A stretch of DNA of 64,000 bases from Desulfatiglandales bacterium (GCA_963666345.1 OY762721.1:256001-320000), one strand, 5' to 3'. Shown: positions 27,538-44,666, numbered from the stretch's first letter. Translations and numbers: made by a program. The notes: generated by a model from the letters alone, not told the origin.

Positions 27538-30276
27538 ATGACCCAAGGTAAAGCAAAAGGTTCAGTAATAGTTATGGGGGGTGGTATTGCAGGGATGCAA
27601 GCGGCCCTTTCACTCGCAAACGCAGGATACGGCGTCCACCTGATCGAGCAGTCCGCCTCCCTTGGCGGTATGATCCCGAGCCTTCACCGCATCTATCCAA
27701 TATGCGCATGCTGCAGGCTGGATCCCAGAATCGCCGCCTGCCGACAAGACCCCAATATCAGGATACACCTCAATACAAGCATCCGGGATATTTCCGGGGA
27801 GACAGGAAATTTCAAGGCAGTGCTTGATTCGGACGGCCGGCAGGAAACCGTGGATGCGGGTGCCATCCTCCTAGCCGCCGGCATAGAGACCTTTGAACCC
27901 TCGCGCTATGACACCTATGCCTACGGCCGTCTGCCTAACGTGATTACCAGTGTTGAATATGAGCAGCTTCAGAAACCGCTCGGCCCCAACAGCGGCCTGC
28001 TCAAAAGGCCGTCCGACGGCAAAAATCCTGAAAAGATCGCATGGCTTCAATGCGTGGGCTCAAGAGAGGTCAACCAGTGTGACGCGCCATACTGTTCAAC
28101 CGTATGCTGCATGCACGCACTCAAAGAGGCTATGACCACCAAAGACCAGGATGAGGATATAGACACAAGTATATTTTACATGGATATGAGGGCGCAAGGA
28201 AAGGGATTTGAAGATTACCTCAACAATGCCGTTCAAAGAGGTGTCAATCTGATTCGAAGCAGGGTTCACACGGTTGATACCGTCCCCGGAAGTGACGATC
28301 TGGCCATAACCTACGCGGATGAAAGTGAAGAGCTTCATATTGAAAACTTCGACATGGTAGTGCTGTCCGTCGGTTTAAGACCATCTTCGACCGCAGTTAA
28401 CCTTGCAAAAAAATGCGGAATAGAGCTCAAGGAAAGTCAGTACATAGCCACAACGCCCTTTATGCCGGTATCCACAAACATACCGGGGATATTCGTGAGT
28501 GGAGGAATCGAAGGCCCGGCAGACATCTCCGAATCGATTATCCAGTCAAATGCAGCGGTCTCCGAAATCATATCGGTTCTTGCCCCTGAGCCGTTCAGCG
28601 CCCCGGCCTCTTACCCGGAGATAAGGGAACTGGATGATCAGGAGGCATCTATATTCGTGTCATACAATCTCTGCCCGGGAATGGACCCCAAGTTCGCGGA
28701 AAAAATCGCGGAATGTGCAAAGGCCCTTCCGGGGGTCGTCGCGGTCTCACAGGCAGAAGGAGACTTACTGGATGCGATCTCACAGGGAATAACAAAATGC
28801 GGAGCCAACAGGCTTGTCTTTGCGAGCTGCACCCCGGTTGTCCATGAAGGTCTTGTCAGGGAGGCCTTGAGGCTTGCCGGGATCAACCCCTATCTCTATG
28901 AGACGGTTGATCTCAGGGCGATAGGAGATGACACGATATCCACCCAGATCGAGGACCGCCTCCGCATGGGCGCATCCAGGGTTTCACTTATCTCCCCTCC
29001 ATCTTTAAGGGAAATCGCCGTTTCAAAAAGCGCCCTTGTCGTGGGAGGAGGTATTGCAGGCCTTGAAAGCGCGCGTGCCCTCTCTCTGGAAGGTTACCAG
29101 GTAACGGTCATAGAAAAGGAGAAGGAACTCGGAGGGCACGGCCTCCATGTAAGAAACACCTGGCAGGGCTTTGATGTACAGGGGTATCTGAAGGACCTTA
29201 TCTCCTCGGCCCGTAAGGATAAAAATATCACCATAATGACCGGAACCGAGGTCACTCAAAACAGGGGCTTCGCGGGCAACTTCGCAACTACCGTCATACA
29301 AAACGGAAAGGAAAAGGGCCTTTCAAACGGAGCCATAATCCTGGCCCCCGGAGGAGAGACAAAGAGGCCTGAAGAATACCTCTACGGAGAGCATGACAGG
29401 GTCTTTACCTGGCAGGAATTAAGCGCCCGGATGATTGAGGACCCTTCCCCCTTTGAAAACGCCTCAAGCGCGGTATTCATACAGTGCGTGGGATCAAGAC
29501 AGCCGGATTGTCCTCACTGCAGTAACTTCTGCTGCACCTTTGCCGTCAGGGCTGCGATAGACCTTAAGACAAATAATCCCTCCATGAAGATCTTCATCCT
29601 CTACAGAGAGATGCGCACGTTCGGTGAAAGGGAGAACCTGTACAAACAGGCCAGGGAAAAGGGCGTGATATTCATACGCTATGACATGGACTCAAAGCCG
29701 GAAGTTGAGGCGCTTGGGGATAAAGGGCTAAAGGTTACGGTCTTTGATCCTATACTGCAGAGACAGATTACCCTGGAAGCAGACTTTATTTCGCTTCAGA
29801 CGGCGATAGTCGGTTCGAACAACAACCGGATTTCTGATATCTTTAAGGTCGACCTTGATTCAAACGGATTTTTCGCGGAATCACCTGAAAAGCTGAAACC
29901 TCAAAGCACGACCGTTCCGGGAATCTACACGGCCGGGCTCGCGCACTATCCCAAGGACACTCTCAGCAGCATAGGACAGGCAAAGGCAGCCGCGGCCTGC
30001 GCTCTCGAGATCCTATCCAGGGACACGGTCCAGGTAGGCGGGGCGGTCGCAGAGGTTAATCCTGAAAAATGCGCGGTCTGCTGCACCTGTGTAAGGACCT
30101 GCCCCTTTCAGGTGCCTGTTATCGACCATAGCACGGGCGCGGCATATATAGATCCCGGACTTTGCCAGGGATGCGGCATGTGTGTCGCGGAGTGCCCCGG
30201 AAAGGCGATAGTCATGTCCACATGCAGCGATGATATGCTGGTTGAGGCCTCCTCTTTCCTGACGGCGTCATCATGA
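27538..30276 (+). CDS. hdrA: HdrA-like flavoprotein, tandem FAD domains, Cys-only paralogue
   Basis: Two GGGIAG FAD motifs, two QCVGSR...CS-x-x-CC motifs, C-terminal 2x[4Fe-4S] (CAVCCTCVRTCP, CQGCGMCVAECP); 912 aa. Confidence 0.9.
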   Translation: MTQGKAKGSVIVMGGGIAGMQAALSLANAGYGVHLIEQSASLGGMIPSLHRIYPICACCRLDPRIAACRQDPNIRIHLNTSIRDISGETGNFKAVLDSDGRQETVDAGAILLAAGIETFEPSRYDTYAYGRLPNVITSVEYEQLQKPLGPNSGLLKRPSDGKNPEKIAWLQCVGSREVNQCDAPYCSTVCCMHALKEAMTTKDQDEDIDTSIFYMDMRAQGKGFEDYLNNAVQRGVNLIRSRVHTVDTVPGSDDLAITYADESEELHIENFDMVVLSVGLRPSSTAVNLAKKCGIELKESQYIATTPFMPVSTNIPGIFVSGGIEGPADISESIIQSNAAVSEIISVLAPEPFSAPASYPEIRELDDQEASIFVSYNLCPGMDPKFAEKIAECAKALPGVVAVSQAEGDLLDAISQGITKCGANRLVFASCTPVVHEGLVREALRLAGINPYLYETVDLRAIGDDTISTQIEDRLRMGASRVSLISPPSLREIAVSKSALVVGGGIAGLESARALSLEGYQVTVIEKEKELGGHGLHVRNTWQGFDVQGYLKDLISSARKDKNITIMTGTEVTQNRGFAGNFATTVIQNGKEKGLSNGAIILAPGGETKRPEEYLYGEHDRVFTWQELSARMIEDPSPFENASSAVFIQCVGSRQPDCPHCSNFCCTFAVRAAIDLKTNNPSMKIFILYREMRTFGERENLYKQAREKGVIFIRYDMDSKPEVEALGDKGLKVTVFDPILQRQITLEADFISLQTAIVGSNNNRISDIFKVDLDSNGFFAESPEKLKPQSTTVPGIYTAGLAHYPKDTLSSIGQAKAAAACALEILSRDTVQVGGAVAEVNPEKCAVCCTCVRTCPFQVPVIDHSTGAAYIDPGLCQGCGMCVAECPGKAIVMSTCSDDMLVEASSFLTASS

Positions 30277-30392
30277 GATTTATCCGCCGATTCGGGGATC
30301 AGGGATCCCGTTTCCATGGTCTTTAATGTCTCAGGGTCGATTCCGTTACGGCGGCAGGTGTTGCCGAGCCAAACAAACAAGGAGAATTTTCC

Positions 30393-30800
30393 ATGAACGA
30401 TTTCACACCTAAGATAGTCGCCTTCTGCTGTTCAAACTGTGCCTCTTCCGCAGCGGAGATAGCCCACGGCATGTCAAAGACAATGCCGCCCAATGTTAAG
30501 ATTGTCCAGGTTCCGTGTACGGGCCGTATAGAAATCCTCCATCTTCTGAAACCCTTTGAAAACGGTGCGGACGGAGTCTATGTCGCCGGCTGTCAGGAGG
30601 ACAGCTGCCGGTATGTCAATGGAATCACCAAGGCGGCTAAAAGGGTTGAAAGCGTAAAAAAAATCCTGGAAGAGCTGGATATCGAACCGGACAGGATAGA
30701 CGTCTTCAATCTCTCGGCAGCACAGGGACAGAGATTCGTTGAAGTCGCACATGAGATGGTTGAAAAAATCAGGGATCTAGGGCCAAGCCCAGCCAAATAA
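30393..30800 (+). CDS. mvhD: MvhD/FlpD [2Fe-2S] subunit (Cys form)
   Basis: IVAFCCSNC, VPCTGR, GADGVYVAGC-x4-C, LGPSP. Confidence 0.92.
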   Translation: MNDFTPKIVAFCCSNCASSAAEIAHGMSKTMPPNVKIVQVPCTGRIEILHLLKPFENGADGVYVAGCQEDSCRYVNGITKAAKRVESVKKILEELDIEPDRIDVFNLSAAQGQRFVEVAHEMVEKIRDLGPSPAK

Positions 30801-30828
30801 ACCCAAGACATTTTGCGAGGTAATCATA

Positions 30829-31497
30829 ATGATCGTTGCTGAGTCAAAACCTATAAAGGAAATCCTCGACATGGTACAGCAATTCCACAGGATACTTGTG
30901 GTAGGCTGTAAAGGGTGCGTCACAGTCTGCAATGTCGGAGGCGCAAAAGAGGTTGCAATCCTCGCCTCCGCGCTCAGGATAGCCGGTAAGAAAGCGGGAC
31001 ATGCATTTGAGATAGAAGAAAGGACCTTGGAGAGGCAGTGCGATCCGGAATATATCGAGGAGCTTGATCCTGTAATCGAAGGCTATGATGCCGTCGTTTC
31101 AATGGCGTGTGGTGTCGGCCCGCAATTCCTTTCAGAACGTTACCTTTCCGTCAGGGTATTTCCCGGTGTGAACACCAAGTTCATGGGGGGGGCCGTGGAA
31201 CATGGAGTGTGGGCGGAAAGGTGCGCAGGATGCGGGCAATGCGTTGTACACCTTTTCGGCGGTATCTGTCCCATTGCCAGGTGTTCGAAGAGTCTTTTGA
31301 ACGGTCCCTGCGGAGGGTCCAATAATGGAAAGTGTGAAATTTCCGATGATGTAGACTGCGTCTGGGACATAATTGTGAGAAAAATGACGGAGCAGGGTCG
31401 GCTTGACGATTTGATCGAATTCGTTCCACCCAAGAGCTGGACCACTGCACGTGACGGAGGACCTAGGCGTATGGTCAGGGAGGAACTGGTGAAATGA
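30829..31497 (+). CDS. metV: Methylene-THF reductase small Fe-S subunit MetV
   Basis: GCKGCVTVC..GG, ERQCD, ACGVG, CAGCGQC...GICPIARCSKSLLNGPCGG...CE....DCVW; overlaps the metF start. Confidence 0.88.
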   Translation: MIVAESKPIKEILDMVQQFHRILVVGCKGCVTVCNVGGAKEVAILASALRIAGKKAGHAFEIEERTLERQCDPEYIEELDPVIEGYDAVVSMACGVGPQFLSERYLSVRVFPGVNTKFMGGAVEHGVWAERCAGCGQCVVHLFGGICPIARCSKSLLNGPCGGSNNGKCEISDDVDCVWDIIVRKMTEQGRLDDLIEFVPPKSWTTARDGGPRRMVREELVK

Positions 31498-32423
31498 GCG
31501 AGGTTAAATCTGGAAGCAACCTGGAAAAGGTTTTAAGGGCTGGTCATTTCGCATTCACAGGTGAGTGTGGTCCGCCTCAAGGCGCCAATGTGGAGCACCT
31601 CAGGGAAAAGGCCTCTCACCTGAAAGGCTGTGTTGATTCGGTCAATATAACCGACAATCAGACCGCGGTCGTCCGCATGTCCAGCTGGGCTGCGTCCCTT
31701 TTGATACTGAATGAAGGGATTGAACCCAATTTTCAGATGGTGTGCCGGGACAGAAACAGGCTTGCCATTCAAAGCGACATACTCGGCATATACTCTCACG
31801 GCATAAAAAACATGCTCTGCCTTTCCGGAGACCATCAAAAGTTCGGTAACCATCCTGACGCCAAAAACGTCTTTGATATCGATTCCATGCAGCTTATTCA
31901 TACTGCCAAGACCATGAGAGATGAAGGTAAATTTCTAAACGGTCAGGATATAGACGTGCCGCCCAAGATCTTTATCGGGGCCGCATCCAATCCATTTGCC
32001 GAACCCTTTGATTTCCGGGTATACAGGCTGGCAAAAAAGATCGCCGCCGGTGCCGATTTTGTTCAGACCCAGTGCATATACAATATGGACAAATTCAGGG
32101 AATTCATGAAAAGGGTCGTTGACATGGGGCTTCATGAGAAGTGCTTCATACTTGCCGGTGTCACCCCCATGAAAAGCGTAGGTATGGCCCGTTATATGGC
32201 AAAACAGGTACCAGGCATGGACGTGCCCTCTTCTCTCATAAAAAGGCTTCAGGGGGCTGGAAAGGGTAAAGTGGCGGAGGAGGGAATACAATTCGCCATA
32301 GAGCAGATAAATGAGTTCAAGGAGATGGAAGGAATAGCAGGGGTTCACCTGATGGCCATAGAATGGGAGCACCGGGTACCTGAAATCGCCGAAAGGGCGG
32401 GTATGCTGCCAAGGCCTCAGTAG
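31494..32423 (+). CDS. metF: Methylenetetrahydrofolate reductase MetF
   Basis: GECGPP, NITDNQTA, CRDRNRLAIQSD, LSGDH, KKIAAGADFVQTQ, GVHLMA. Confidence 0.95.
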   Translation: MSEVKSGSNLEKVLRAGHFAFTGECGPPQGANVEHLREKASHLKGCVDSVNITDNQTAVVRMSSWAASLLILNEGIEPNFQMVCRDRNRLAIQSDILGIYSHGIKNMLCLSGDHQKFGNHPDAKNVFDIDSMQLIHTAKTMRDEGKFLNGQDIDVPPKIFIGAASNPFAEPFDFRVYRLAKKIAAGADFVQTQCIYNMDKFREFMKRVVDMGLHEKCFILAGVTPMKSVGMARYMAKQVPGMDVPSSLIKRLQGAGKGKVAEEGIQFAIEQINEFKEMEGIAGVHLMAIEWEHRVPEIAERAGMLPRPQ

Positions 32424-32471
32424 AGTTTGCCAGAAGACCGTTTTTTTTGTATTTTCACGACAGTAAACTAC

Positions 32472-32566
32472 AAAAGTCCTTTAGGGAATCCTTACGCGAT
32501 GAGGGGGTAAAACCGGAACCCGGCAATCTCCTCGCGGGTAAGAATTACCCAAAAGGGCTTTTTTTT
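32472..32566 (+). terminator. Long imperfect hairpin with U-tract after metF (terminator or structured RNA)
   Basis: Nested pairings AAAAGTCCTTT/AAAGGGCTTTT, GGG/CCC, CTTAC/GTAAG, GCGA/TCGC, then a T run. Confidence 0.5.
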
Positions 32567-32663
32567 ATTAATCCTTTCTGATATACGTGTATATGCTTGT
32601 CACCTTTTGCTCACCATGTTTTATCTGAAAAAAGTTTTTGACGCATATAAGGGCGCCTGTCTT

Positions 32664-32915
32664 ATGATCATAAAGACCAAAAACGGCAGATCTTTTGATA
32701 CTGAAAAGGACCTTAATTCCGCTGAGCGGCATATAGTGCAAAAGCTTTTTGCCTGGGAACAGATGGCCGCAAGCCTTGAACAATTCAAGGGGAAAAAGGA
32801 AGAAGCACTCAAAAAAGGCTGGAACGGCTCCGGTCCCCTGCGTGAAAGCATCGCGATAAGGATAATTACAAGAGACATGGAACAAAAGGTTAGCGCACGT
32901 TTGGCGACCGGTTGA
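32664..32915 (+). CDS. Small hypothetical protein
   Basis: MIIKTKNGRSFDTEKDLNSAERHIVQKLFAWE..., 83 aa from ATG 32664; leads the regulatory cluster. Confidence 0.65.
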   Translation: MIIKTKNGRSFDTEKDLNSAERHIVQKLFAWEQMAASLEQFKGKKEEALKKGWNGSGPLRESIAIRIITRDMEQKVSARLATG

Positions 32916-32974: not shown

Positions 32975-34945
32975 ATGAATAAAAAGGCCAAAGACGGCGG
33001 GACCCGCGCGGCGACTTTCCCTGCCTCGGAAGTGAACATCCACAAGCCGACCATCTGTTTTGCAATCGTCGGCGGTGGAAAGGAGTGCGCCCTGCTCCTG
33101 CAGAACCTTTACCCGGACGGATTTTCCAGATTAAACATGGAACTGATCGCAATAGCCGACCGGCAAAAGGATGCACCGGGTTACGCATTTGCCGAAAAAT
33201 CCGGTTTATCGGTTTTTACGGATTATAGGCGATTATTTCAGATTAAAGGCCTGAATCTGATCGTGGAATTGACCGGTTCCGATCCGGTCGCGAAAGAGAT
33301 ATACGGAACCAAACCTGATAATATATCTTTCATAGACCACAGCCTGGCTCACCTCATATTTTCTTCCATATTCAGTGAATCCCCGGACAAACTACTTGAC
33401 AGGATATCCATGGATATCTGCATGAAGAGAAAGGAAAAGACCCAAACCGTCCTTGATTCCCTTCCCTATCGCGTAATGGTAGTTAACAGGGATATGACCA
33501 TAAGCATGGTCAACCATACCTTTCTCAGGGAGAAAAATCTTACCTGGGAAGAGGCCATAGGCAAATATTGCTACCAGGTAAGGTACGGACTCAAAAGACC
33601 CTGCTGGCAAAGCGGCATGACCTGCTACCTAAAAGAGGTAAAGGAGAAGGGTGAGATCGTAAGCTCCATACACGAATACCGGGATGAAAAGGGTGAGCAG
33701 CGTTTCGATGTGATCACCGCATCGGCCATACTGGATGATACCGGGAAAATCACCCAGCTCCTTGAGGCCTCAAGGGATGTCACGAAGAGGATAAAGCTTG
33801 AGAAAGACGCCCAGAAATCGAACGTATTTCTGCAGAATGTCATTCAGAGCACGGTAGACGGAATAGTAGTGGTTGATACCAGAGGTTATGTCCTTCTTTT
33901 CAACGAGGGCATGGAAAGGCTTACCGGATATACGGCGGAGGAGATAACCGCAAAAGGTCACGTAAGTTATTTCTATGACATCGACGTGGCCAGGGAAAAC
34001 ATGAAAAAGATGCGCAGTTCCAGGCATGGACCCGTAGGCAAACTTAACCCCATATCCATGTCCGTAACAACAAAACAGGGGGAAGAAATTCCGGTTACCC
34101 TCTCCGCCTCCGTCATAACCATAGATGGAAAGGAGGTGGGAAGTGTCGGTGTGTTCACCGACATGCGTGAAGTCCTGAAGATGCGCAAGGACCTTGAAGA
34201 GGCCCACCTCCAACTGGTGCAATCCGAAAAGATCGCCTCAGTGGGAAAGATGGCGGCAGGAGTCGCCCATGAAATAAACAACCCACTTTCAGGAATCCTT
34301 TTATACGCGGAACTTTTGAAGGAAAATCTGGTCCATAACCAGCAGCACATGAGCGATATACAGGAGATAATCGATCAGACCCTGAGGTGCAAGAAGATAG
34401 TCTCCGAACTTCTGGAGTTCAGTCGTCATTCGGTTGGAAAGGTTTCATCCTTCAGCCTGAAAAAGCTTATAACCAAGTGCATGGACCTGCTCATAAATCA
34501 GGCCATTTTTCACGACATAGACGTAACAACCGACATTGACGGCGACATGCCCGACATAGTCGGGGACATGGGACAGCTTCAACAGGTCTTTACAAATCTT
34601 TTCATAAATGCGGCCGATGCCATGCATGGCAAGGGGAGGCTTGACATTCACGCCTCGTACAATCATGAAAAGGGTTCCTTCAGGGTACTGGTCGCAGACA
34701 CCGGTCCCGGCATACCTGTCCGGGTCAGAGACAAGATCTTCGACATATTCTTTACGACCAAACCCACTGGAAAGGGAACAGGTCTGGGCCTGAGCATATC
34801 TCAGAACATCATCAAGCTTCATGGCGGAACTATTTCCGCGCAATGCCCGCCAGAAGGAGGCACTACCTTTGTGATCGAGATACCGAGGGAATACATGGAG
34901 CCGTTTGCCGATGAAGAGGTATTTATAGGGATGGAAGGACCATGA
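32975..34945 (+). CDS. Sensor histidine kinase (Rossmann-like N-domain, two PAS domains)
   Basis: FAIVGGG...AIAD...LIVELTG; two PAS domains; [38 protein letters not shown]. Confidence 0.92.
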
Positions 34946-36438
34946 ATGAAAAGACAGCCGTACTGGTGGTAGATGATGAAAGGTCGATTAGGGAAGGATG
35001 CCGCCGCCTTTTGACTGGAAGAGGCTTTTCCGTTGATACCGCTGAAAACGGACGGGTGGCCCTGGAGATACTTTCAAAAGCCCGCGTGGATATCATGCTC
35101 CTTGACCTTAAGATGCCTGTCATGGGAGGAGAAGAGTTACTGGGCATAGTCCGGAACAGCCACCCCCATATCCCGGTCATAATAATAACGGGACACGGAA
35201 CGGTTGATACGGCGGTTGAATGCATGAAAAACGGGGCCTATGATTTCATAACAAAGCCCTTTGAGGTCGACCAGTTTCTTCTTACCATAAACAGGGCTGC
35301 CGAAAAAAAACGCCTTGAACAGAGGGCAAGGCTCTTTGAAGAGGAAAACATAAAGAATCTATATGACATCACACTAGAAAAGAGTCGCCTCAGGACGATC
35401 ATCAACTGCATGGCAAACGGAGTAATGGTAACCAATCGCAATCTTGAGGTGGTCCTTCACAATCCGGCGCTCATGAGGCTGATGGAAATCCCGGAACAAA
35501 CCAGGACACCCGTTCCTATAAGCAAGATAATTGACAGCAAGTCTCTCATAGAGACTATAAGACAGATTCAAAACGGCGAAACCGGCCAGAGTGAGTTTAT
35601 CGCCCAGGAGATTCGGGTGGGGTCAAACATCCTGAGGGCGATTTCGGCGCCCGCTTTCGGGGTTGACCGGCATGTCTTTTTGAGTGTGGTAGGCGCGGTC
35701 ACCGTACTTGAGGACATTACGGCCTTCAAACAGCTCGATTTGATGAAGACGAACTTTGTCAACATGGTTGCACATGAACTCAGAAGCCCTCTGGTATCGA
35801 TAAGGCAGCTCAACAGCGTACTATGCGAGGGCCTGGCCGGGGAACTGGGTCTGAAGCAGAAAGACTATGTGGAAAGGGGTATAAAAAAGATCGATGTATT
35901 GCTGGAACTGATAAACGACCTGCTTGATGTCGCCAGGATCGAGGCGGGAAAGGTCGTGCAGCACAGGGTGCCGACCGATCTGCTCTCAATCATGGAAAAC
36001 ACGATTTCCCTCATGGAACAGCATGCCGCAGAAAAGCAAATAAAGATAATCCTTGAGTGCGGCGACATACGGCCTATCCAGGCGGATCCAAAGAACATGG
36101 AGGAGCTGTTCACCAATCTTCTCAGTAATGCCGTCAACTACTCCCCGGGAGGTGGTGAAATACGAGTCTCGGCCAAAGGACACGCCGGGTACGTGCAGAT
36201 AATGGTCGAGGACACCGGCATCGGAATACCGGTGGAAGAACTTCCCAAGATTTTCGATCAGTTTTACCGAGTAAAACACCCAAGTACACGCCAGGTAATA
36301 GGTACGGGTCTCGGGCTCTCGATCGTAAAGGGCATAGTCGAGGCCCACCATGGGAAGATAGAAGTGGAAAGTGTCATCAACAAGGGGACCTCATTTAAGA
36401 TTCTTCTGCCCTTAACAGCTGAAACGGTCGATCAATGA
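34942..36438 (+). CDS. Hybrid receiver-PAS-histidine kinase
   Basis: LVVDDE, LLDLKMP, FITKPF; VAHELRSPL, NLLSNAVNY, GTGLGL; ATGA overlap with the upstream gene. Confidence 0.92.
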   Translation: MNEKTAVLVVDDERSIREGCRRLLTGRGFSVDTAENGRVALEILSKARVDIMLLDLKMPVMGGEELLGIVRNSHPHIPVIIITGHGTVDTAVECMKNGAYDFITKPFEVDQFLLTINRAAEKKRLEQRARLFEEENIKNLYDITLEKSRLRTIINCMANGVMVTNRNLEVVLHNPALMRLMEIPEQTRTPVPISKIIDSKSLIETIRQIQNGETGQSEFIAQEIRVGSNILRAISAPAFGVDRHVFLSVVGAVTVLEDITAFKQLDLMKTNFVNMVAHELRSPLVSIRQLNSVLCEGLAGELGLKQKDYVERGIKKIDVLLELINDLLDVARIEAGKVVQHRVPTDLLSIMENTISLMEQHAAEKQIKIILECGDIRPIQADPKNMEELFTNLLSNAVNYSPGGGEIRVSAKGHAGYVQIMVEDTGIGIPVEELPKIFDQFYRVKHPSTRQVIGTGLGLSIVKGIVEAHHGKIEVESVINKGTSFKILLPLTAETVDQ

Positions 36439-37796
36439 CGCACGATATGCAAGACAGACAGGTTCTGGTTATTGACGATGAATCCGTTGTCAGAAAGGCG
36501 ATAAGCAGGGCACTTCAAAACAAGGGCATGATGGTGAAGACCGCTAAAAGCGGCCACGATGCAGTGGATCTGCTGAAAGGCGCCCCGTTTGACCTCATTC
36601 TGCTCGATATCCGAATGCCGGACATGGACGGAATAAGCCTTTTAAAAATAATCCGCTCCAGTTATCCCAAAACCCCGGTTATCATGATAACCGGTTATCC
36701 CAGCATTGACTCGGCCGTTCGGTGCGTCAGGCTCGGCGCCCTTGACTACCTTGTCAAACCGTTCCGGCTCGATGATCTGGATGCGGCCCTTGCCAAGGGC
36801 CTCACCCCGGAGCGACCCGATGCGATCCGGGGAAAAAGCCCGCACGCAGTGCCGATCGACTCCAAAAGGAACCTCATTATCGGCGAAAGTCGCCCAATGG
36901 CAGATCTTTATGAAAAGATATTGAAGGTGGCTCCCACTGACAGCACGGTACTTATCACGGGTGAGAGCGGTACCGGAAAGGAACTGGTAGCAAGGGCCAT
37001 ACATGTCAACAGTCTCAGAAAAAACAGGGAATTCGTTGCGGTTGACTGCTCCTCACTTGTGGAAAGCCTTCTTGAAAGCGAGCTGTTCGGTCATGTAAAG
37101 GGTTCATTTACAGGGGCTCATAATACCAAGCATGGCTTTTTTGAACTTGCCAACCAGGGCACATTCTTTTTTGACGAGATATCCAACCTGAGCCTCAATA
37201 TCCAGGCAAAACTCCTGAGGGTGGTTCAGGAAAGGGAATTCATGAAGGTGGGAGGCCACAAGAGGATAAGACTGGATATCCGAATAATTTCCGCATCCAA
37301 TAAAAACCTTGAACAGTCGATTCAAACAGGTGATTTCAGAGAAGACCTCTTTTACCGTATCAGCGTTGTCCCGATTCATCTGCCCCCCTTAAGACAGAGG
37401 AAGGCGGATATCCCGATCCTTACTCAACATTTCCTCAACAGATTCAGCCGCAAGATAAAGCGCCCCAAGCCTGAAATAACTCCCGACGCAATGGAGATAC
37501 TGATGGAGTATTCCTGGCCCGGTAATGTAAGGGAGCTGGAACATACGATCGAGAGGATACTCATACTTGAAGACACCGACATAATACGCCCGAGTGATCT
37601 TCCCTCCTTCATATCTCAACGCATGGGCGAATTTCAGATGTATTCGGAAGAACCTTTCAGCCTGGAAGAGCTTGAAAAAAAATATATACGTTTCGTGCTG
37701 AGAAGGACAAAAGGGAAAAAGGCAAAAGCGGCACAGGTGCTCGGCATCAACCGCAAGACCCTTGGCCTCAAGATCAAAAAATACGACCTCTACTGA
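36435..37796 (+). CDS. Sigma-54-dependent response regulator (NtrC family)
   Basis: Receiver domain, GESGTGKE, ESELFGHVKGSFTGA, FFDEI, WPGNVREL, Fis-type HTH. Confidence 0.95.
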   Translation: MTHDMQDRQVLVIDDESVVRKAISRALQNKGMMVKTAKSGHDAVDLLKGAPFDLILLDIRMPDMDGISLLKIIRSSYPKTPVIMITGYPSIDSAVRCVRLGALDYLVKPFRLDDLDAALAKGLTPERPDAIRGKSPHAVPIDSKRNLIIGESRPMADLYEKILKVAPTDSTVLITGESGTGKELVARAIHVNSLRKNREFVAVDCSSLVESLLESELFGHVKGSFTGAHNTKHGFFELANQGTFFFDEISNLSLNIQAKLLRVVQEREFMKVGGHKRIRLDIRIISASNKNLEQSIQTGDFREDLFYRISVVPIHLPPLRQRKADIPILTQHFLNRFSRKIKRPKPEITPDAMEILMEYSWPGNVRELEHTIERILILEDTDIIRPSDLPSFISQRMGEFQMYSEEPFSLEELEKKYIRFVLRRTKGKKAKAAQVLGINRKTLGLKIKKYDLY

Positions 37797-38086
37797 GGTG
37801 CAAAACCGCCAGTGCTACGAGTAATATTGTCACATTTGAGATATTTTATCGCCTGTGATAATTTCTCTTTATTTTTCAGGCAGTTATGCCAAAACATAGT
37901 TAAGGCACCGTTACAAATTGCCCCGAAAATTTCCTGCCATGGCCTGTTATGCCGGCTGGACCATATCCCTTCCGGTTTTCTCTCAAGCCGGGTCAACAAA
38001 TATTTCAAGGGGATATTCACCTCTTTTTGGTTAAAATGCCTTTCACCGCCCAAAATAAATCGGATCTTTCATGAGCCATAATTCAA

Positions 38087-38102
38087 AGGTACGAATATTG
38101 CT
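38087..38102 (+). promoter_or_regulatory. Putative sigma-54 (-24/-12) promoter
   Basis: AGGTACGAATATTGCT = GG-N10-GC with TTGC at -12; lies between the sigma-54 activator gene and the second Hdr/Met operon. Confidence 0.6.
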
Positions 38103-38287: not shown

Positions 38288-38662
38288 ATGGGCATTTCAG
38301 AATCGATATTAATCGCGGAACCTGTTGAGGGAATCTCAAGCGAACTGGACCGGTTTCTGAGTGAGACAGGTCTCAGCAGCGTGAGGGCGAAATCGCTTAA
38401 AGAGACAATACTCTGCCTCCAGGCTCAGAGATTTGATGCACTAATCCTTGATTCATCCCTTCTTGAACAGGACTGCGGATTCATATCCATAATCAAGGGG
38501 ATAGAAGAACAACTCCCCATCATAATCTGCGCCGACGTAAACACGCCTCAGCTTGAAAGCGATATACGTCAGCAGGGTATTTTCTACTACCACATAAAGT
38601 CCTTTGGAATCCAGGAACTGGAAATGGCAATTTCCAACGCCATCAAGAGGCAATCCTGTTGA
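38288..38662 (+). CDS. Atypical stand-alone receiver-like protein
   Basis: ILIAE...LILDSSL...LPIII...YHIKSF: receiver fold with a degenerate acidic pocket. Confidence 0.7.
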   Translation: MGISESILIAEPVEGISSELDRFLSETGLSSVRAKSLKETILCLQAQRFDALILDSSLLEQDCGFISIIKGIEEQLPIIICADVNTPQLESDIRQQGIFYYHIKSFGIQELEMAISNAIKRQSC

Positions 38663-38679: not shown

Positions 38680-39555
38680 ATGTCTATCAGTGAAAAGATC
38701 GAAGCTGGAAAATATGTTCTTCTAGGAGAATTTGAACCACCTAAAGGTCCTAATTTTTCGGGCCTTTTACGTAACGCCAATCACGTCAAGGGGCGGCTTG
38801 ACGCCCTTGTAATTCCTGAGATGGCAAATGCGGTTGTCAAGGCCAGTTCCCTGGGCGGATGCGCGTTTCTGGCAAGACACGGCTTTAATGCCGTGTTCCA
38901 GGCCTCCTGCCGCGACAGAAACAGACTGGCCCTGCAGGCCGATCTGCTGGCCGCTTCCGCCCTCGGCGTATCAGATATGATGGCGGTTAACGGCGAGGAT
39001 ATAAGATTCGGAGATCAACCCCAGGCAAGATCGGTATATGACGTTGATCTCATGCAGCTTATTGAAACCATGGCCGGTCTTAGAAAAGGAAAGGATATGG
39101 CCGGGATAGAACTGAACAGCACCCCGCGCTTCTCAATAGGCGCCACGATAAATGCGGGCGCTATGGGCGGGGCCCTGGACATAGAACTTGAGAACCTTGA
39201 GAAGATGATAGATCAAGGTGTTGAATTTGTTATCACAACTCCCGTATTCGACATGCACCGCTTTAATCAGTTTGCAAGGAGAATAGCAGGAATGAGCATC
39301 TCGGTCATCCCAACGGTCCTCTTGTTGAAATCAGCGGGAATGGCCCGCTATATCGACAGGAATATAAAGAACATCTCCATCCCCTCAGACCTAATAAGAG
39401 ACATTCAAAAATCGCCTGATAAACTAAAGCAATGCATTAAGATTACTGCTGATCTTATTGTAAAATTTAAGGAAAAAGGAATGGCAGGAGTCATGATATC
39501 AACCATGGGGTGGGAGGACAGGCTGCCCCTGATCCTTGATGAGGCCAGACTCTGA
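38680..39555 (+). CDS. Divergent MetF-family (MTHFR-like) protein
   Basis: GEFEPPKG, CRDRNRLALQADL, GVEFVIT-T-P, MARY. Start at ATG 38680 after AGGAGG. Confidence 0.85.
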   Translation: MSISEKIEAGKYVLLGEFEPPKGPNFSGLLRNANHVKGRLDALVIPEMANAVVKASSLGGCAFLARHGFNAVFQASCRDRNRLALQADLLAASALGVSDMMAVNGEDIRFGDQPQARSVYDVDLMQLIETMAGLRKGKDMAGIELNSTPRFSIGATINAGAMGGALDIELENLEKMIDQGVEFVITTPVFDMHRFNQFARRIAGMSISVIPTVLLLKSAGMARYIDRNIKNISIPSDLIRDIQKSPDKLKQCIKITADLIVKFKEKGMAGVMISTMGWEDRLPLILDEARL

Positions 39556-39580: not shown

Positions 39581-42500
39581 ATGACGGCATCAGGTAAGGC
39601 TCCAAGCGGTTCGGTCATGGTCGTCGGTGCAGGGATAACCGGTATGCAGGCGGCCCTGGACCTGGCTAGTTCCGGCTACTATGTTCATCTGGTGGAGAAC
39701 TCATCAAGCATAGGAGGAATGATGGCCAGGCTGGACAAGACCTTCCCTACCAACGACTGCGCCATGTGAATAATCTCGCCCAAACTGGTCGAGGTCGGCC
39801 GGCACCTGAACATAAACATAATCACCAACAGCTCAATAGAATCCATAAGCGGTGAGCCTGGAGATTTTTCAGTCGCCCTCCTTAACCGCCCGAGGTATGT
39901 CGACACGGAAAAATGTACCGGTTGCGGGGAATGCGCCAAGTATTGTCCCATATCCGTTCAAAATCTCTACAATCTCGGCCTTGACCGCAGGAATGCAACC
40001 TATATGGAATATCCTCAGGCAATTCCGCTTGCATTCGCAATAGACGATGAGTCATGCATCGGCTGCGGTCTCTGCGAAAAGATGTGCATTGCAGGAGCCA
40101 TCAACTATGAAGACAGGGCGAGGACCTCGATCCTTGACGTGGGCGCCTTGATTCTATGTCCCGGAAGCAAGGGGTTTGATCCTTCCGGGCTGGACATATA
40201 TGGCTACGGCAGGCACGCTAACGTTGTTACAAGCGAGGAGTTCGAAAGGATTCTGAGCGCCTCAGGGCCATATAGAGGCAACCTGATGAGGCCGCTTGAC
40301 AGGGAGGCGCCTCAAAAAATCGCCTGGATCCAGTGTGTGGGCTCAAGAGACACGAATCGATGCGACAAGGGATACTGCTCCTCCGTATGCTGCATGTATG
40401 CCATCAAAGAGGCCATGATAGCCAAAGAGCACTGCCAGGGCCGGCTGGAATGCAAGATCTTCAACATGGATATGAGGACATTTGGAAAGGATTATGAAAG
40501 ATATCTTCTCAGGGCCAGGGATGAAGCGGGAATAAAATTTATCAAATCAAGGATCCATACCATAGATGAGATAAGGGAATCCGGGGATCTTTCCATAACA
40601 TACTCGGATGAGCTGGGACAGCTGCTCACCGAGACCTTTAACATGGTCGTCCTGTCGGTGGGGCTAGAGATACCCCCATCCGTAATAGAGCTTGCAGGGC
40701 GTATAGGGGTGGAAACCGACTCATACGGCTTCGCAAAATCATCTCCCCTTGATCCGGTTGAAAGCTCAAGGCCGGGTATTTTTCTGGCCGGAGTCTTTCA
40801 GGGCCCCAAGGATATCCCCGCCTCCGTTACAGAGGCAAGCGCCGCGGCCTGTTCTGTTTCCACCATTCTGTCCGATTCAAGGGGCAAGGACGCAAAAGAT
40901 TTTCACGTTCCGGCCGAAAAGGACGTGTCTCTGGAAGAGCCTAGGATAGGGGTCTTTGTCTGTAACTGCGGAATAAACATAGCAGGGGTGGTGGATGTGC
41001 CGACGGTGACGGCCTATGCCGCACGCCTGCCTTTTGTGACCTTTGCCGATCACAATCTATTTACCTGCTCTCAGGATACACAGGACAAGATAAGAGAGGT
41101 TATAAGGAAAAAGGGCCTCAACCGGGTAGTGGTTGCCTCATGTTCTCCAAGGACGCACGAGGCGCTTTTTCAGGAGACCCTGCAGGCCTGCGGCCTCAAT
41201 AAATACCTTTTCGAGATGGCCAACATAAGGGATCAGGACTCATGGGTGCATGCAAACGATCCGGAAGCGGCCACGGAAAAGGCGAAAGATCTTGTCAGGA
41301 TGGCCGTGGCACGGGCGGGGCTTCTCAAACCTCTTAAGGAAAAACGGATACCCATCAACAAACGGGCACTGGTGATAGGTGGAGGCGTATCCGGGATGAA
41401 CAGCGCCCTGGGGCTTGCCGATCAGGGCTTTGACGTCGTTCTTGTCGAAAAGGAGGTCGGGCTGGGGGGACTGTCATCAGAGCTAATCAGGACTATTGAA
41501 GGTAAAGACATTCAAAGATACCTTCTTGAGACGATCGAAAAAGTGAGCAGCCATGAAAGGATTCAGGTGCTGCTTGGATCCCTTATCGTCGGCTTCACCG
41601 GATTCAAGGGCAACTTTACCACAGAGGTAATTGTAGGCCCAGGCATGTATGAACGCAAGATTGACCATGGAGTGGCCATACTGGCCACGGGCGCAAAAGA
41701 ATACCGGCCCACGGAGTATTTTTACGGTCAGGACCCTCATGTCCTAACCCAGATAGAACTGGGGCAGAGGCTCGACCTGAAAGGGGCTGATGATCTCAAA
41801 AACGTGGTAATGATCCAGTGCGTCGGATCAAGGAACAGGGAAAACCCAATATGTTCCCGTGTGTGCTGTCAAAGCGCCGTAAAAAACGCGATCCTAATAA
41901 AGGAACTCAACCCTCAAACCAACGTGTACATACTTTATCGTGACATGCGCACCTACGGCATGATGGAGAGATACTATTCCGAGGCAAGACAGAGGGGTAT
42001 AATATTTGTCCGCTTTTCAGAGGAGCGCCCTCCCCTTGTCGAACAGGGTGAAGAAGGACTGTCGGTCACCTTCAGGGACCATATAATAGATATGGACTTA
42101 AGGATCAATGCCGATCTGCTGGTATTGAGCGCCGGCATGGTACCTGAAAACACCCGGGAGCTGGCCTCGATAATGAAATTGCCCAGGAACGGAGAAGGAT
42201 ACTTTATTGAGGCCCATGCGAAGCTTCGTCCGGTGGATCTGGCAAATGAAGGCATATTCATATGCGGGACAGCACACAGTCCGAAACTGATATCCGAATC
42301 GATTACCCAGGCAAAGGCTGCCGCATCAAGGGCCGCGACCTTCTTATCACAGCCGGAGATAGTGCTTTCCGCCGTGACCGCGAAGGTAGATCCGGACATG
42401 TGCGCCTCATGCCTCATATGCGTAAGGTCCTGTCCTTACGGGGTGCCCAGGATAAACCAGGAGGGGGTAAGCGAAATAGACGAGGCCCTGTGTCACGGAT

Positions 42501-42607
42501 GCGGCATATGTGCTGCGGAATGTCCTGCAAAGGCAATAGAACTGAGATGGTACCGGGACGATCAGATTATGAGCAAACTGGACGCACTGTTCGAAGGAGT
42601 CATCTGA
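39581..42607 (+). CDS. hdrA: HdrA-like flavoprotein, tandem FAD domains, selenocysteine at codon 63 (1008 aa)
   Basis: Track ORFs 39536-39769 and 40004-42607 are one frame broken only by TGA 39767-39769 in LDKTFPTNDCAM[U]IISPKL, a conserved Cys/Sec position. The intervening frame is open and encodes CTGCGECAKYCP. Confidence 0.92.
39785..39802 (+). promoter_or_regulatory. Putative SECIS of hdrA
   Basis: CTGGTCG-AGGT-CGGCCGG stem-loop; loop GG lies 23 nt after the TGA. Confidence 0.65.
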
Positions 42608-43038
42608 TGAAGGATAACGAACCGATAATAGTGGCATTCTGCTGCAATTTCTGAGGTTACACCGCCGCGGACCTGGCAGGTTCGATGCGCATTCATTACC
42701 CAGGCTCAATCAGGATAATAAGGGTTCCCTGTACCGGCAAGGTCGACCTGATCCATATACTGAGGGCCTTTGAAAAGGGTGCAGACGGTGTCTATGTGGT
42801 AGGCTGTCTGGAAGGAGACTGCCGCTTTGAAAACGGAAACCTGAGGGCGAAACTGAGGGTCAGGCAGGCGAAAAAGATCCTGGACAGCATAGGAATAGGC
42901 GGGGAACGGGTACAGATGTTCAATCTCTCATCAGGGGAAGGACCGAGGTTCGCGGAGATTGCAACTGAAATGACGCAGAAGGTGAAAGAGCTGGGTCCGA
43001 ATCCGGTCAAGAGGGTAAACACGGATAGGGCGGCGTAG
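42607..43038 (+). CDS. mvhD: MvhD/FlpD subunit, selenocysteine at codon 16 (143 aa)
   Basis: ATG overlaps the hdrA stop (TGATG); MKDNEPIIVAFCCNF[TGA 42652-42654]GYTAADLAG continues in frame into track ORF 42685-43038 (VPCTGK, VGCLEGDC). Confidence 0.92.
42668..42684 (+). promoter_or_regulatory. Putative SECIS of mvhD
   Basis: CGGACCT-GGC-AGGTTCG stem-loop; loop GG lies 20 nt after the TGA. Confidence 0.6.
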
Positions 43039-43071
43039 GATTTACAATCCAAAAAAGCGAGGTAACCCTTC

Positions 43072-43740
43072 ATGATAGTCGCGGGAAAAAAGCCGATAGA
43101 GGAAATCATCGAGCAGGTGGAGCCATTCAGCTCAATCCTTGTGGCCGGATGCAACGAATGTGTGACAGTGTGTGAGGCCGGAGGGAAAAAGGAGGTGGGG
43201 GTGATCGCTTCCGCCCTCAGAATGTATTTCATGAACCAGGGCAAAGAGGTCAAAATTGATGAGATAACCTTTGAGCGCCAATGTGACCGTGAATTCCTGG
43301 AAGAGCTGAGGGACCGTGCAGACAGGTATGACGCGATCCTGTCCCTTGCATGCGGTGCCGGAGTACAGTTCATGGCCGAGACATACCCTTCCCTGCCGGT
43401 ATTTCCGGGAGTAAACACCTCTTTCATCGGGGTGACGGAACAGAGGGGATTGTGGACCGAGCGCTGCCAGGGATGCGGAGACTGCATCCTGGGCCGGACA
43501 GCCGGGATCTGCCCTATATCCAGATGCGCCAAGAGGCTGCTCAACGGCCCGTGCGGCGGATCCACAAAAGGAAAATGCGAAATCAACAAGGAACTCGACT
43601 GTGCATGGCAGCTTATTATCGAAAGGCTCAAGGAACTGGGCCGGCTTGAGGATTATGAAAAGATAATTCCGATAAAGGACTGGTCCTGTGAAAGGGCGGG
43701 CGGTCCGAGAAAAGTCGTCAGGGAGGATGTAATACTATGA
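43072..43740 (+). CDS. metV: MetV (second copy)
   Basis: GCNECVTVC..GG, ERQCD, CQGCGDC...GICPISRCAKRLLNGPCGG; same length (222 aa) as the first copy. Confidence 0.88.
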   Translation: MIVAGKKPIEEIIEQVEPFSSILVAGCNECVTVCEAGGKKEVGVIASALRMYFMNQGKEVKIDEITFERQCDREFLEELRDRADRYDAILSLACGAGVQFMAETYPSLPVFPGVNTSFIGVTEQRGLWTERCQGCGDCILGRTAGICPISRCAKRLLNGPCGGSTKGKCEINKELDCAWQLIIERLKELGRLEDYEKIIPIKDWSCERAGGPRKVVREDVIL

Positions 43741-44666
43741 GCGGCACACCCAGCAGACTTGAAAAGATTCTCACCCAAGGCCACCTCGCAGTCACCTCTG
43801 AATGCGGTCCGCCCAGGGGCAGCGATCCGGAGGCGATTACAAAAAAGGCGGATATGATAAAGGCCCATGTGGATGCGATAAACATCACGGATAATCAGAC
43901 CTCGGTGACAAGGCTCTGCAGTCTGGCAGCCTGCATTCATCTCAAGTTGAAGGGGGTTGAACCGGTCCTTCAGATGGTTACCCGCGACAGGAATCGAATA
44001 GCACTTCAAAGCGATATACTGGGGGCATCCTCTTTTGACATACACAACATATTATGCCTGTCGGGAGATCACCAGCAATTCGGGGACAACCCGAAAGCTC
44101 AGAACGTATTTGACCTTGATTCCATTCACCTGATCCAGACGGTAAAACAGATGAGAGATGAAGGAAAATTTTTGGGCGGAGACGACATCAACAGGCCACC
44201 TAAGATGTTCATAGGTGCCGCCGCCAATCCCTTTGCAGACCCTTTTGAAATAAGGGTCCCCAGGCTTGCCAAAAAGGTCGCAGCTGGCGTCGAGTTCATA
44301 CAGACCCAGTGTATCTACAACCTTGATCGCTTCGAGGAGTGGATGAAACAGGCAAGAGACAGGGGGCTTCACAAAAAGGTCTTCATACTGGCGGGACTCA
44401 CCCCCCTGAAGTCCGCCGGTATGGCCAAGTATATGAGAAACAGGGTGCCTGGCATGGATGTGCCGGAGGAGGTCGTAAAAAGGATGAGCGGCGTGCCGAA
44501 AGAAGAACAGGCCCGGGAAGGAATAAAGATATGCGTGGAGTCGATCCAAAGGCTGAAAGAGGTAGAGGGGGTGAGCGGCTTTCACATAATGGCCATAGAA
44601 TGGGAGGAGATGGTCCCGGAGATAGTTGAAAAAGGGGGGCTTTATCCGAGACCCGAGGCCGGATAA
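43737..44666 (+). CDS. metF: MetF (second canonical copy)
   Basis: SECGPP, NITDNQT, RDRNRIALQSD, LSGDH, KKVAAGVEFIQTQ; 309 aa like the first copy. Confidence 0.95.
   Translation: MSGTPSRLEKILTQGHLAVTSECGPPRGSDPEAITKKADMIKAHVDAINITDNQTSVTRLCSLAACIHLKLKGVEPVLQMVTRDRNRIALQSDILGASSFDIHNILCLSGDHQQFGDNPKAQNVFDLDSIHLIQTVKQMRDEGKFLGGDDINRPPKMFIGAAANPFADPFEIRVPRLAKKVAAGVEFIQTQCIYNLDRFEEWMKQARDRGLHKKVFILAGLTPLKSAGMAKYMRNRVPGMDVPEEVVKRMSGVPKEEQAREGIKICVESIQRLKEVEGVSGFHIMAIEWEEMVPEIVEKGGLYPRPEAG

Follow-up and report, generated by a model that had tools for sequence, protein, structure and literature searches.

The gene order hdrA-mvhD-metV-metF occurs twice in a Desulfatiglandales bacterium, within a 64-kb window (the whole stretch of DNA analysed, with positions counted from its first letter). 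We propose, at about even probability, that these two ancient, separately promoted HdrA–MvhD–MetVF sets would be alternative methylene-THF reductase complexes selected by redox state or electron acceptor and not by selenium, with module 1 ferredoxin-free and module 2 coupled to ferredoxin and NADH. Gene calls and Pfam names agree with the twin order reported in the initial annotation, as do the translations with its equal lengths for MetV (222 aa) and MetF (309 aa) across the modules (Table 1). The genome carries the Wood–Ljungdahl sulfate-reducer markers acsB, fhs, folD and dsrA, and the locus is borne out as a genuine pair of HdrA–MvhD–MetVF modules with separate promoters in such an organism.

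Locus architecture, conservation and phylogeny

The modules are 41, 48, 53 and 60% identical over the four genes (53% for MetV1 and MetV2). The locus extends beyond the four-gene modules, with a small ORF at 32664, receivers at 38288 and 44828, a MetF-like gene at 38680 and an ACT protein at 45227, and the two kinases, the NtrC-type activator and the −24/−12 site preceding module 2 were all located between the modules, where they had been placed. The small ORF product has 34 distinct orthologues, 30 of them aligned, and no match in Pfam or NCBIfam. No match to hdrB or hdrC was found inside the window; matches lie at other sites of the genome, which also holds a third mvhD-like/metV/metF set and about ten hdrA paralogues.

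Table 1. Features of the twin-module locus, with positions in the window.
Feature	Position	Strand	Description
Module 1 promoter motif	27355..27386	+	TTGACA (−35 type) and conserved second block
hdrA1	27538..30276	+	912 aa; short fused double HdrA
mvhD1	30393..30800	+	135 aa; PF02662, [2Fe-2S] subunit, CxNCAS subtype, without Sec
metV1	30829..31497	+	222 aa; PF12225
metF1	31494..32423	+	309 aa; PF02219
Small ORF	32664..32915	+	83 aa; conserved, between metF1 and kinase 1
Histidine kinase 1	32975..34945	+	Soluble; Rossmann-like N-terminal domain, PAS, second PAS, HisKA, HATPase
Hybrid kinase 2	34942..36438	+	Receiver, PAS-like, HisKA, HATPase
NtrC-type sigma-54 activator	36435..37796	+	Receiver, AAA+ with GSFTGA loop, HTH_8
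Inverted upstream motif pair	37819..37924	37819–37833 −, 37910–37924 +	Conserved motif; putative activator sites
Sigma-54 (−24/−12) promoter motif, module 2	38087..38102	+	Motif match
Stand-alone atypical receiver	38288..38662	+	PF00072; first gene past sigma-54 site; conserved in relatives
MetF-like head gene of module 2	38680..39555	+	Catalytic Glu kept
hdrA2	39581..42607	+	1008 aa with TGA read as Sec; inserted ferredoxin domain
mvhD2	42607..43038	+	143 aa; Sec16 (TGA 42652)
metV2	43072..43740	+	222 aa
metF2	43737..44666	+	309 aa
Single-domain response regulator	44828..45208	+	Conserved 3′ of metF2; 74–87% identity in most relatives
Tandem-ACT protein	45227..46240	+	Resembles aspartokinase regulatory region; conserved as module 2 end

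The initial annotation had called for a phylogeny of the paralogues, and the MetF and HdrA copies fall in separate, well supported clades. MetF1 and MetF2 each have 99% support in a quick tree; the short HdrA forms a clade of its own (FastTree, 100% support), which includes sequences of Syntrophobacteria and is not sister to HdrA2. The HdrA of module 1 is a separate, older subfamily. In Syntrophobacteria it has folD/fhs as neighbours, and in ten of 11 distant loci (L059–L069) short hdrA-mvhD adjoins folD/fhs. Both MetF clades are found together in 23 of 40 relatives, with the entries for G004 and G021 taken from separate searches. Across the 40 relatives MetF1 tracks dsrA (25/4/4/7; p = 0.004 before allowing for kinship), and both are missing in all four members of family f3. 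The exceptions, namely four MetF1 genomes in which dsrA was not found and four dsrA genomes without MetF1, are mostly incomplete MAGs, and related genomes are not independent.

Proteins of the two modules

In pairwise alignment, HdrA1 lacks the 76-residue two-cluster ferredoxin domain of HdrA2, and this inserted domain is missing from all 47 members of the short HdrA set (891–923 aa). It is the low-potential exit of bifurcating HdrA (PMC12350162, PMC13518236, PMC9012536). HdrA1 is short of two [4Fe-4S] motifs and its N-terminal-type domain retains only two conserved cysteines. The motifs that look degenerate beside canonical HdrA are invariant across the 47 orthologues. The FAD motifs and the CVGSR...CSxxCC cluster motif are present in both halves of HdrA1 and of HdrA2. 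The predicted structure of HdrA1 (pTM 0.86) resembles HdrA structures, and sHdrA of Hyphomicrobium denitrificans (PDB 6TJR) matches residues 10–347 (model TM 0.88 by target). The equivalents of Glu356 and Lys409 (E142 and K196), a pair at the FAD that we take to have a role in HdrA electron bifurcation, occur in the first half only of all 47 short HdrAs and also in the first half of HdrA2. Given this retained pair, the short HdrA may still bifurcate through another exit. It also carries a Cys197 equivalent. In MetF1, the three catalytic or folate-binding positions (Glu, Asp and Gln) are intact.

HdrA2 is the complete form of the fused double protein: it has the inserted ferredoxin domain as well as the N-terminal-domain cysteines. 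An NAD(P)H-type (NfnB/GltD-like) insert, as in HdrL, is present in the module 2 HdrA of 15 of 21 assessable relatives and absent from both HdrA1 and HdrA2 of this genome. In the MetF-like head protein, the folate-binding Gln is missing in 20 of 20 sequences and the Asp position is variable, with the catalytic Glu kept (residue roles from PMC11094777).

In-frame TGA codons are located at 39767 (codon 63 of HdrA2) and 42652 (codon 16 of MvhD2), each followed by a hairpin; that of hdrA2 is found again 3′ of TGA in five other hdrA genes of the genome, which encodes selA, selB, selD and tRNA-Sec. Sec63 of HdrA2 sits at the Cys197-equivalent site, where HdrA1 has CxCC opposite CxxU. Alignment of both HdrA and MvhD places Cys of module 1 against each Sec of module 2, in agreement with the earlier description of these sites.

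Promoters and signalling cassette

A motif search of 37 upstream regions yielded the TTGACA-type motif of module 1 at 17.8 bits, compared with about 9 in shuffles. In most relatives it is followed by a Rex-like box, the right half of which matches at least six of seven positions in 32 of 40 promoters and four of seven in this genome, where the box is decayed. The box is present in 12 of 14 Rex-encoding genomes (the exceptions being G030 and G266) and in none of eight that lack Rex (p = 1.4 × 10⁻⁴ before allowing for kinship). NADH releases Rex (PMC2883068), and in Desulfovibrio both sat and qmo are under Rex repression (PMC4045070). A search of this genome for rex gave no PF06971 match and a best tblastn E value of 0.008 at 23%; with both rex and the box wanting, evidence for its own redox link comes from the relatives and from kinase 1, whose Rossmann-like N-terminal domain weakly matches the Rex NADH-binding domain (E = 4 × 10⁻⁴, probability 35%). 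One of 23 kinase 1 orthologues matches NAD_binding_3. The kinase 1 PAS carries three conserved cysteines.

Module 2 has the features of a sigma-54 operon: a −24/−12 site, an enhancer motif, a GAFTGA-type activator loop and rpoN in the genome. Of 23 loci that include the receiver gene, 21 have the site and two have sequence that ends 140 and 0 nt upstream; none of six loci lacking that gene has it, and about 0.08 motifs per 600 nt are expected by chance. An enhancer motif was derived from relatives, and a matrix trained without this locus scores its two sites at 12.5 and 21.5 bits; these inverted copies (37819–37924) are likely to be activator binding sites. We infer that the NtrC-type activator would regulate module 2, because it is adjacent and shows joint loss in five loci, where the MetF-like gene directly follows kinase 2. 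Activator, receiver and sigma-54 site are jointly absent from six loci, and module 2 is thus not always under sigma-54.

Alternative readings and relation to known systems

That the locus is an assembly chimera, or module 1 a decaying duplicate, is very improbable and close to refuted. The genome was assembled as one contig, at 3.4% contamination, and HdrA1 appears degenerate beside canonical HdrA, but the order module 1–kinases–module 2 head is seen again, each time on one contig, in ten other Desulfatiglandales-type assemblies (G015, G021, G030, G033, L032, L039, L041, L046, L048 and L070), for which reason a chimera was rejected. The modules are only 64% alike in DNA over the best 1.4 kb, with similar GC content, the seemingly degenerate motifs are invariant, and contigs of a close relative span all four module 1 genes in RNA libraries from one marine-sediment study (presence only, not transcription). 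A selenium switch in the style of Methanococcus, with module 1 as a Sec-free backup and the cassette activating module 2 when selenium is available, is also unlikely. Cys does stand opposite Sec at both homologous sites, Sec occurs in none of 54 short HdrAs (as extracted) and in every module 2 MvhD read, and such a switch had been suggested for Hdr/MvhD paralogues of Desulfobacterium autotrophicum (PMC2702500). However, the HdrA copies differ in domain content and have deep separate ancestry, and the module 1 MvhD is a selenoprotein, as is that of module 2, in four relatives (G007, G021, G033 and G034), in two of which a single contig holds the kinases flanked by both modules. G032 has selA, yet only module 1 was found; the box that tracks rex sits at the module 1 promoter; no short Cys counterpart exists for five other Sec hdrA genes of this genome; and the known case is a LysR repressor on Cys genes, not a sigma-54 activator on Sec genes. 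Of the genes of this locus, none is an HrsM-like LysR repressor. Both FdhA of this genome are Sec-only, which is no objection to a selenium switch because FdhA of M. maripaludis is likewise Sec-only, and a survey of selABCD cannot discriminate because selA is present in 37 of 40 relatives. Of the switchable pair suggested in the initial annotation, the redox-state or flux-direction alternative is favoured, and the Sec/Cys backup reading finds no support in HdrA domains, clades, Sec in module 1 MvhD or the rex-tracking box.

Two further readings keep both modules functional. Short HdrA and a long HdrA/HdrL could be partner subunits of one super-complex with MetVF, MvhD and HdrBC encoded elsewhere, the relay merely tuning stoichiometry. 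A single run hdrC-hdrB-hdrL-short hdrA-mvhD in Desulfacinum and Desulfosoma loci, the Glu/Lys pair and Cys197 equivalent retained by short HdrA, the 23 of 40 relatives with both modules and a proposal of HdrA heterodimers with complementary domain loss (PMC9012536) speak for this arrangement, which we nevertheless find rather doubtful: each module has its own MvhD, MetVF and promoter type, and near-complete genomes were found with only module 1 (G032 and G029, 97%; G025 and G006, 93%) or only module 2 (G040, 97%; G013, 96%; G037, 95%), the missing module being one not found and its absence not proven. It is doubtful, too, that the assignment is the opposite one, in which high NADH would open module 1 as a reductive electron sink, leaving methyl-THF oxidation, or methyl supply for biosynthesis under amino-acid control, to module 2. 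An electron sink fits Rex release at high NADH, a conserved ACT-domain protein closes module 2, and genomes without dsrA (family f3 and G037) retain module 2 alone, acetate oxidation having been proposed for such lineages (PMC13343851); yet the short HdrA lacks an NAD(P)H insert with which to accept NADH, sulfate-respiration genes are among the Desulfovibrio Rex targets and MetF1 tracks dsrA.

In the reading that we prefer, both complexes would serve the same step in the Wood–Ljungdahl methyl branch. Module 1 would be the default enzyme. From methyl-THF, two electrons would travel by way of MetV, MvhD and the short HdrA and, without ferredoxin, reach a sulfate-respiration partner of high potential that is linked to HdrBC/DsrC or to quinone. 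Module 2, turned on by the kinase–NtrC relay, would bifurcate or confurcate electrons so as to tie the methylene-THF step to ferredoxin and NADH for CO2 fixation or sulfate-free growth. We infer the direction of each module's reaction. The Cys/Sec difference would then follow from which HdrA/MvhD subfamily is in use and would not be the switch itself.

With metV and metF adjacent and HdrA and MvhD genes co-clustered in both, as in the gene definition of type IV MTHFR, the twin modules are a predicted variant of that enzyme. Type IV MTHFR of Moorella thermoacetica (PMC8760232, PMC9012536) shares MetV, MetF, MvhD and a fused double HdrA in one cluster and, with HdrA2, the complementarity of Cys197 and N-terminal domain. 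Unlike MetVF-HdrCBA-MvhD of Moorella, neither module has hdrB/hdrC; here two copies differ in HdrA wiring, one having a short HdrA from which the ferredoxin insert is missing, and a MetF-like head gene, receivers and an ACT protein are added in a sulfate reducer rather than an acetogen. In the accessible text of PMC6895022, Thermacetogenium phaeum likewise has hdrA and an MvhD-type subunit adjoining metFV with hdrBC elsewhere, a reversible Wood–Ljungdahl pathway and proposed quinone-linked methyl-THF oxidation; its single cluster lies next to CODH/ACS, and that text reports no second module, signalling cassette or short HdrA. Methanococcus maripaludis has the Sec/Cys pairs HdrAU/HdrA and VhuD/VhcD with the regulator HrsM (PMC11097638), and thus Sec/Cys at the homologous HdrA (197) and MvhD sites in one genome. 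Here, in contrast, the Cys copy belongs to another subfamily, lacks a domain and is not equivalent in cofactor content, the Cys-HdrA module can itself hold Sec (in MvhD of the four relatives above), and the promoter motifs indicate sigma-54 and Rex in place of a LysR repressor. Desulfobacterium autotrophicum HRM2 (PMC2702500) shares many HdrA–MvhD pairs, Sec and non-Sec paralogues and HdrL with an NADH-binding insert, and ANME HdrA variants (PMC9012536) share lost domains; the portions of these two sources available report no link to MetVF, twin arrangement or defined promoters. The Hyphomicrobium sHdrA shares with HdrA1 an HdrA core without ferredoxin insert but is a 349 aa single unit of sulfur oxidation, whereas HdrA1 has two fused units and a C-terminal ferredoxin domain and comes with MvhD. 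One reductase step would thus have two wirings: a cut-down HdrA behind a housekeeping-type promoter motif and Sec subunits behind a sigma-54 promoter motif.

Gene modules and probable selenocysteine codons

The window genome (G000; 4.16 Mb, single contig) has Desulfatiglandales, including strain NaphS2, as its closest named relatives and encodes dsrA, acetyl-CoA synthase, fhs, folD, selA/B/D, tRNA-Sec and rpoN. Gene calls and a domain search confirmed the two four-gene modules described in the initial annotation (see table). The identity between the modules is 41% for HdrA, 48% for MvhD, 53% for MetV and 60% for MetF. The conserved order of module 2 is receiver, MetF-like, hdrA, mvhD, metV, metF, receiver and ACT protein. 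The folate-binding Gln is missing from the MetF-like head protein in 20/20 sequences, although the catalytic Glu is retained (residue roles from PMC11094777); this protein could be a subunit without catalytic function or an enzyme for another pterin. Its gene is present in 24 of 40 relatives at 59-71% identity, and additional MetF-like paralogues occur at 30-44% identity. The small ORF between metF1 and kinase 1 received no name from Pfam, NCBIfam or Atlas. An Rfam scan of 26-47 kb (E up to 1) returned zero matches and thus no known riboswitch in that region.

Both TGA codons of module 2 are best read from the sequence as Sec codons, since Cys faces each of them in homologues and a hairpin lies 3' of each; the reading in hdrA2 is further supported by recurrence of its hairpin in five other G000 hdrA genes. 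Sec63 of HdrA2 and Cys59 of HdrA1 fall at Cys197 in an alignment to PDB 5ODC, a position occupied by Sec in M. maripaludis (PMC13518236).

Locations of features in the window, in genome G000 and in a related locus
Feature	Location	Genes
Module 1	window 27538-32423	hdrA1-mvhD1-metV1-metF1
Kinase 1 N-terminal domain	window 32975-33424	
Inverted motif sites	window 37819 and 37910	
MetF-like head gene	window 38680-39555	
Module 2	window 39581-44666	hdrA2-mvhD2-metV2-metF2
Candidate Sec codon, hdrA2	window 39767	
Candidate Sec codon, mvhD2	window 42652	
hdrL-type gene	G000:C1:1014790-1019197	
Third set	G000:C1:1218578-1223439	mvhD-like-metV-metF
HdrL run	G000:C1:2618430-2627450	hdrL-mvhD-hdrA-mvhD
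Short hdrA pair	L069:8334-11507	hdrA-mvhD

The short HdrA and its distribution

A 76-residue inserted ferredoxin domain, the low-potential electron exit of methanogen HdrA (PMC12350162, PMC13518236, PMC9012536), is missing from HdrA1 and from 47/47 aligned orthologues (891-923 aa). CxCC is invariant in the 47 short HdrAs, and their N-terminal-type domain retains just two invariant Cys residues. The Glu/Lys pair by the first FAD, which has a role in electron bifurcation, is conserved in all 47, and the predicted model of HdrA1 (pTM 0.86) resembles HdrA structures. The module 2 HdrA is an HdrL with a ~450-residue insert in 15 of 21 assessable relatives; such inserts have been described as NADH-binding or NfnB-like (PMC2702500, PMC9012536). 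HdrA2 of the window is without an insert of this type. The HdrL run elsewhere in G000 could be the NADH input missing from the window's module 2. The two MvhDs of this run carry Sec at a second site, its HdrL clusters in the tree with the extra HdrA inside module 2 of two relatives (G015 and G016), and a separate hdrL-type gene has matches spread over more than one frame, with a frameshift probable.

In a quick tree from which duplicate or broken rows and all but three Thermoplasmata rows were excluded, MetF1 (52 rows) and MetF2 (23 rows) form distinct clades, each with 99% support. The HdrA tree, which took in 18 short-HdrA loci, places these proteins in a single clade (100% support) that includes Syntrophobacteria and is not the sister of HdrA2. 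The HdrA review by Appel et al. 2021 may list a short HdrA type. Short HdrA adjoins folD and/or fhs in ten of 11 distant loci (L059-L069), a link to the methyl branch that does not depend on MetVF. Among 40 relatives, MetF1 is present in 28, MetF2 in 29 and both in 21 at an identity of at least 75%; these counts become 29, 31 and 23 once G021, which has frameshifts, and G004, which is truncated by a contig end, are added on the basis of their loci. A phylum-wide MvhD1 search (E 1e-45) returned 94 of 401 genomes, a count in which canonical MvhD is mixed and which does not map the subtype.

In ten further assemblies, module 1, the small ORF, the kinases and the head of module 2 follow one another on one contig, and this shared order makes both an assembly chimera and a decaying duplicate very improbable. 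The locus is real and conserved. In other relatives the cassette remains beside module 1 and module 2 is located elsewhere; in a 1.8-Mb genome (L008, G027:C33) the two modules are directly face to face without the signalling cassette. RNA-library contigs of a close relative, from four runs within a single study, span all four module 1 genes; these indicate presence only, and the runs were retrieved by module 1, so that thin module 2 cover there does not rank the modules.

Cultured carriers include NaphS2, which has module 1 with a Rex-like box, and Desulfacinum infernum and D. hydrothermale, with short HdrA beside folD/fhs. The Desulfacinum/Desulfosoma loci L060, L062, L064, L065 and L066 have a GcvH-like gene, hdrC, hdrB, hdrL, short hdrA and mvhD, then opposite-strand folD and fhs, with dnaN/gyrB adjoining. 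Behind the L069 pair lie genes for acyl-CoA dehydrogenase and etfBA in place of folate genes. Many Thermoplasmata loci (L073-L099) contain folD/fhs, a divergent HdrA (~28% to HdrA1, of similar length), an mvhD-like gene and metF, and may represent module 1's counterpart in archaea. The third set in G000, whose divergent mvhD-like gene has lost the first Cys motif, is flanked by glnA/an asparagine-synthetase-like gene on one side and glutamate-synthase-like Fe-S flavoprotein genes on the other; many relatives likewise have a MetF ~61-67% identical to MetF2.

Predicted promoters and candidate redox input

The module 1 promoter was detected by cross-genome comparison only, consensus scans being at chance level (sigma-70, 19 versus 19.8; terminators, 23 versus 22.5). 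TTGACA and a fixed second block are conserved, and in 32 of 40 promoters a box 24-26 nt further on ends in a TTCACAA-type half-site resembling the S. aureus Rex site (PMC2883068). The box is present in 12/14 rex-encoding versus 0/8 rex-lacking genomes (p 1.4e-4, kin not being independent), counting genomes where rex status could be paired and including five extra genomes picked once their promoters were known. Box and rex co-occur in G001, G004, G006, G008, G009, G011, G015, G017, G018, G019, G432 and G433; rex is present and the box missing in G030 and G266; neither is present in G000, G022, G027, G032, G036, G039, G182 and G431, four of which are one family. No rex gene was found in G000; 22/24 genomes of the same family encode rex, in most cases twice. 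Both rex and box have been lost from the window genome, and module 1 is therefore likely to be unrepressed there.

A -24/-12 motif lies 28-201 nt upstream of the receiver gene of module 2 in 21/23 loci, the other two being cut by contig ends, and in 0/6 loci without the receiver gene (chance expectation ~0.08 per 600 nt); five of the latter loci are without the activator, and kinase 2 there abuts the MetF-like gene directly. A second upstream motif was found in relatives, and a motif matrix trained without the window located two inverted sites in it. No sigma-54 site was found in the 3 kb preceding seven further G000 hdrA/hdrL loci, fhs, folD or the ACS cluster; before hdrA1 such a site occurs in 2/47 upstream regions, and none was taken for hdrA1. 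The module 2 enhancer matrix gave weak matches in 8/47 hdrA1 upstream regions, the window's being negative (11.9 bits), and these matches are not counted as evidence.

The N-terminal domain of kinase 1, a soluble protein, is Rossmann-like, and the PAS domain next to it contains three conserved Cys residues. The former is weakly similar to the Rex NADH-binding domain (90 columns, E 4e-4), above three controls; together with the PAS cysteines, this sequence likeness hints at a redox input. The N-terminal domain has zero Pfam or PDB sequence matches and no name in Atlas, and PAS matches predominate in the Foldseek list. It is found, without a family name, in many Thermodesulfobacteriota kinases.

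Proposed roles of the two modules

The initial annotation proposed selection of the modules by selenium, redox state or flux direction. A selenium switch, with module 1 as a Sec-free backup to module 2, appears quite improbable: Sec is in no short HdrA and module 1 is Sec-free in most genomes, as such a backup would be, but its MvhD partner itself carries Sec in four genomes, and the proposed bacterial switch is thus not borne out. In G007, G021 and G034, MetVF1 is paired with a canonical MvhD that has Sec at the same site, and in G033 with one that has it at the second site; both modules flank the kinases on one contig in G021 and G033, G021 being the weakest example (frameshifts, 74% completeness). 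MetF1 of G007, G033 and G034 is nested within the MetF1 clade in a tree without G021, so that the MvhD partner looks exchanged, with Sec on both sides of a persisting pair. Every module 2 MvhD read carries Sec. A survey of selA, along the lines suggested earlier for selABCD, proved uninformative on the twin arrangement, since selA is near-universal (37/40 relatives) and leaves no correlation of presence possible; the three without selA have TGA-containing mvhD. FdhA of the window genome is Sec-only, which argues neither way because M. maripaludis is alike (PMC11097638). The locus is probably not a Methanococcus-type selenium pair.

The sequences show which genes are present, the loss of a domain, the clades, and the motifs with their co-variation. 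We tentatively propose as one possibility that Desulfatiglandales have two methyl-THF machines, a short-HdrA one that has lost the ferredoxin exit and feeds sulfate respiration under Rex/NADH, and a sigma-54-induced bifurcating one working in the other direction. In the reading that we favour, each module would form an MTHFR complex, with module 1 as the default, module 2 induced via the adjacent activator, and redox as the choosing signal. In the weakest step, module 1 would pass methyl-THF electrons to a respiratory acceptor, as suggested by the lack of both ferredoxin exit and NAD(P)H insert, by the association of MetF1 with dsrA (25/4/4/7) and by Rex regulation of sat and qmo in Desulfovibrio (PMC4045070). 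A shared super-complex containing subunits of both modules is unlikely, as is the reverse assignment, with the two directions swapped. The locus would work like type IV MTHFRs, yet departs from them in lacking hdrBC in the cluster.

Hdr-linked MetVF clusters are described in the literature singly, and Hdr paralogues with and without Sec are described as well. Paired modules, a short MTHFR-linked HdrA and sigma-54/Rex control were not found in the literature searched, which covered a minority of subscription papers and included PMC8760232, PMC2702500, PMC12350162, PMC5109826, PMC13416013, PMC13343851, PMC13518236, PMC9012536, PMC11097638, PMC11094777, PMC6895022, PMC4045070, PMC2883068 and bioRxiv 10.1101/2024.09.26.615249. 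For methylene-THF reductases linked to Hdr, the electron partners are unsettled (PMC8760232), as is the passage of acetate-oxidising sulfate reducers beyond the methyl-THF step. The modules provide, in one cell, a natural pair of HdrAs, of which one has the low-potential exit and the other does not, and each comes with a MetVF and a predicted promoter of its own; cultured carriers make both enzymology and regulation testable. If the proposed two-machine arrangement is true, one would have in the short HdrA a naturally occurring deletion variant that reveals the acceptor still missing for type IV MTHFRs.
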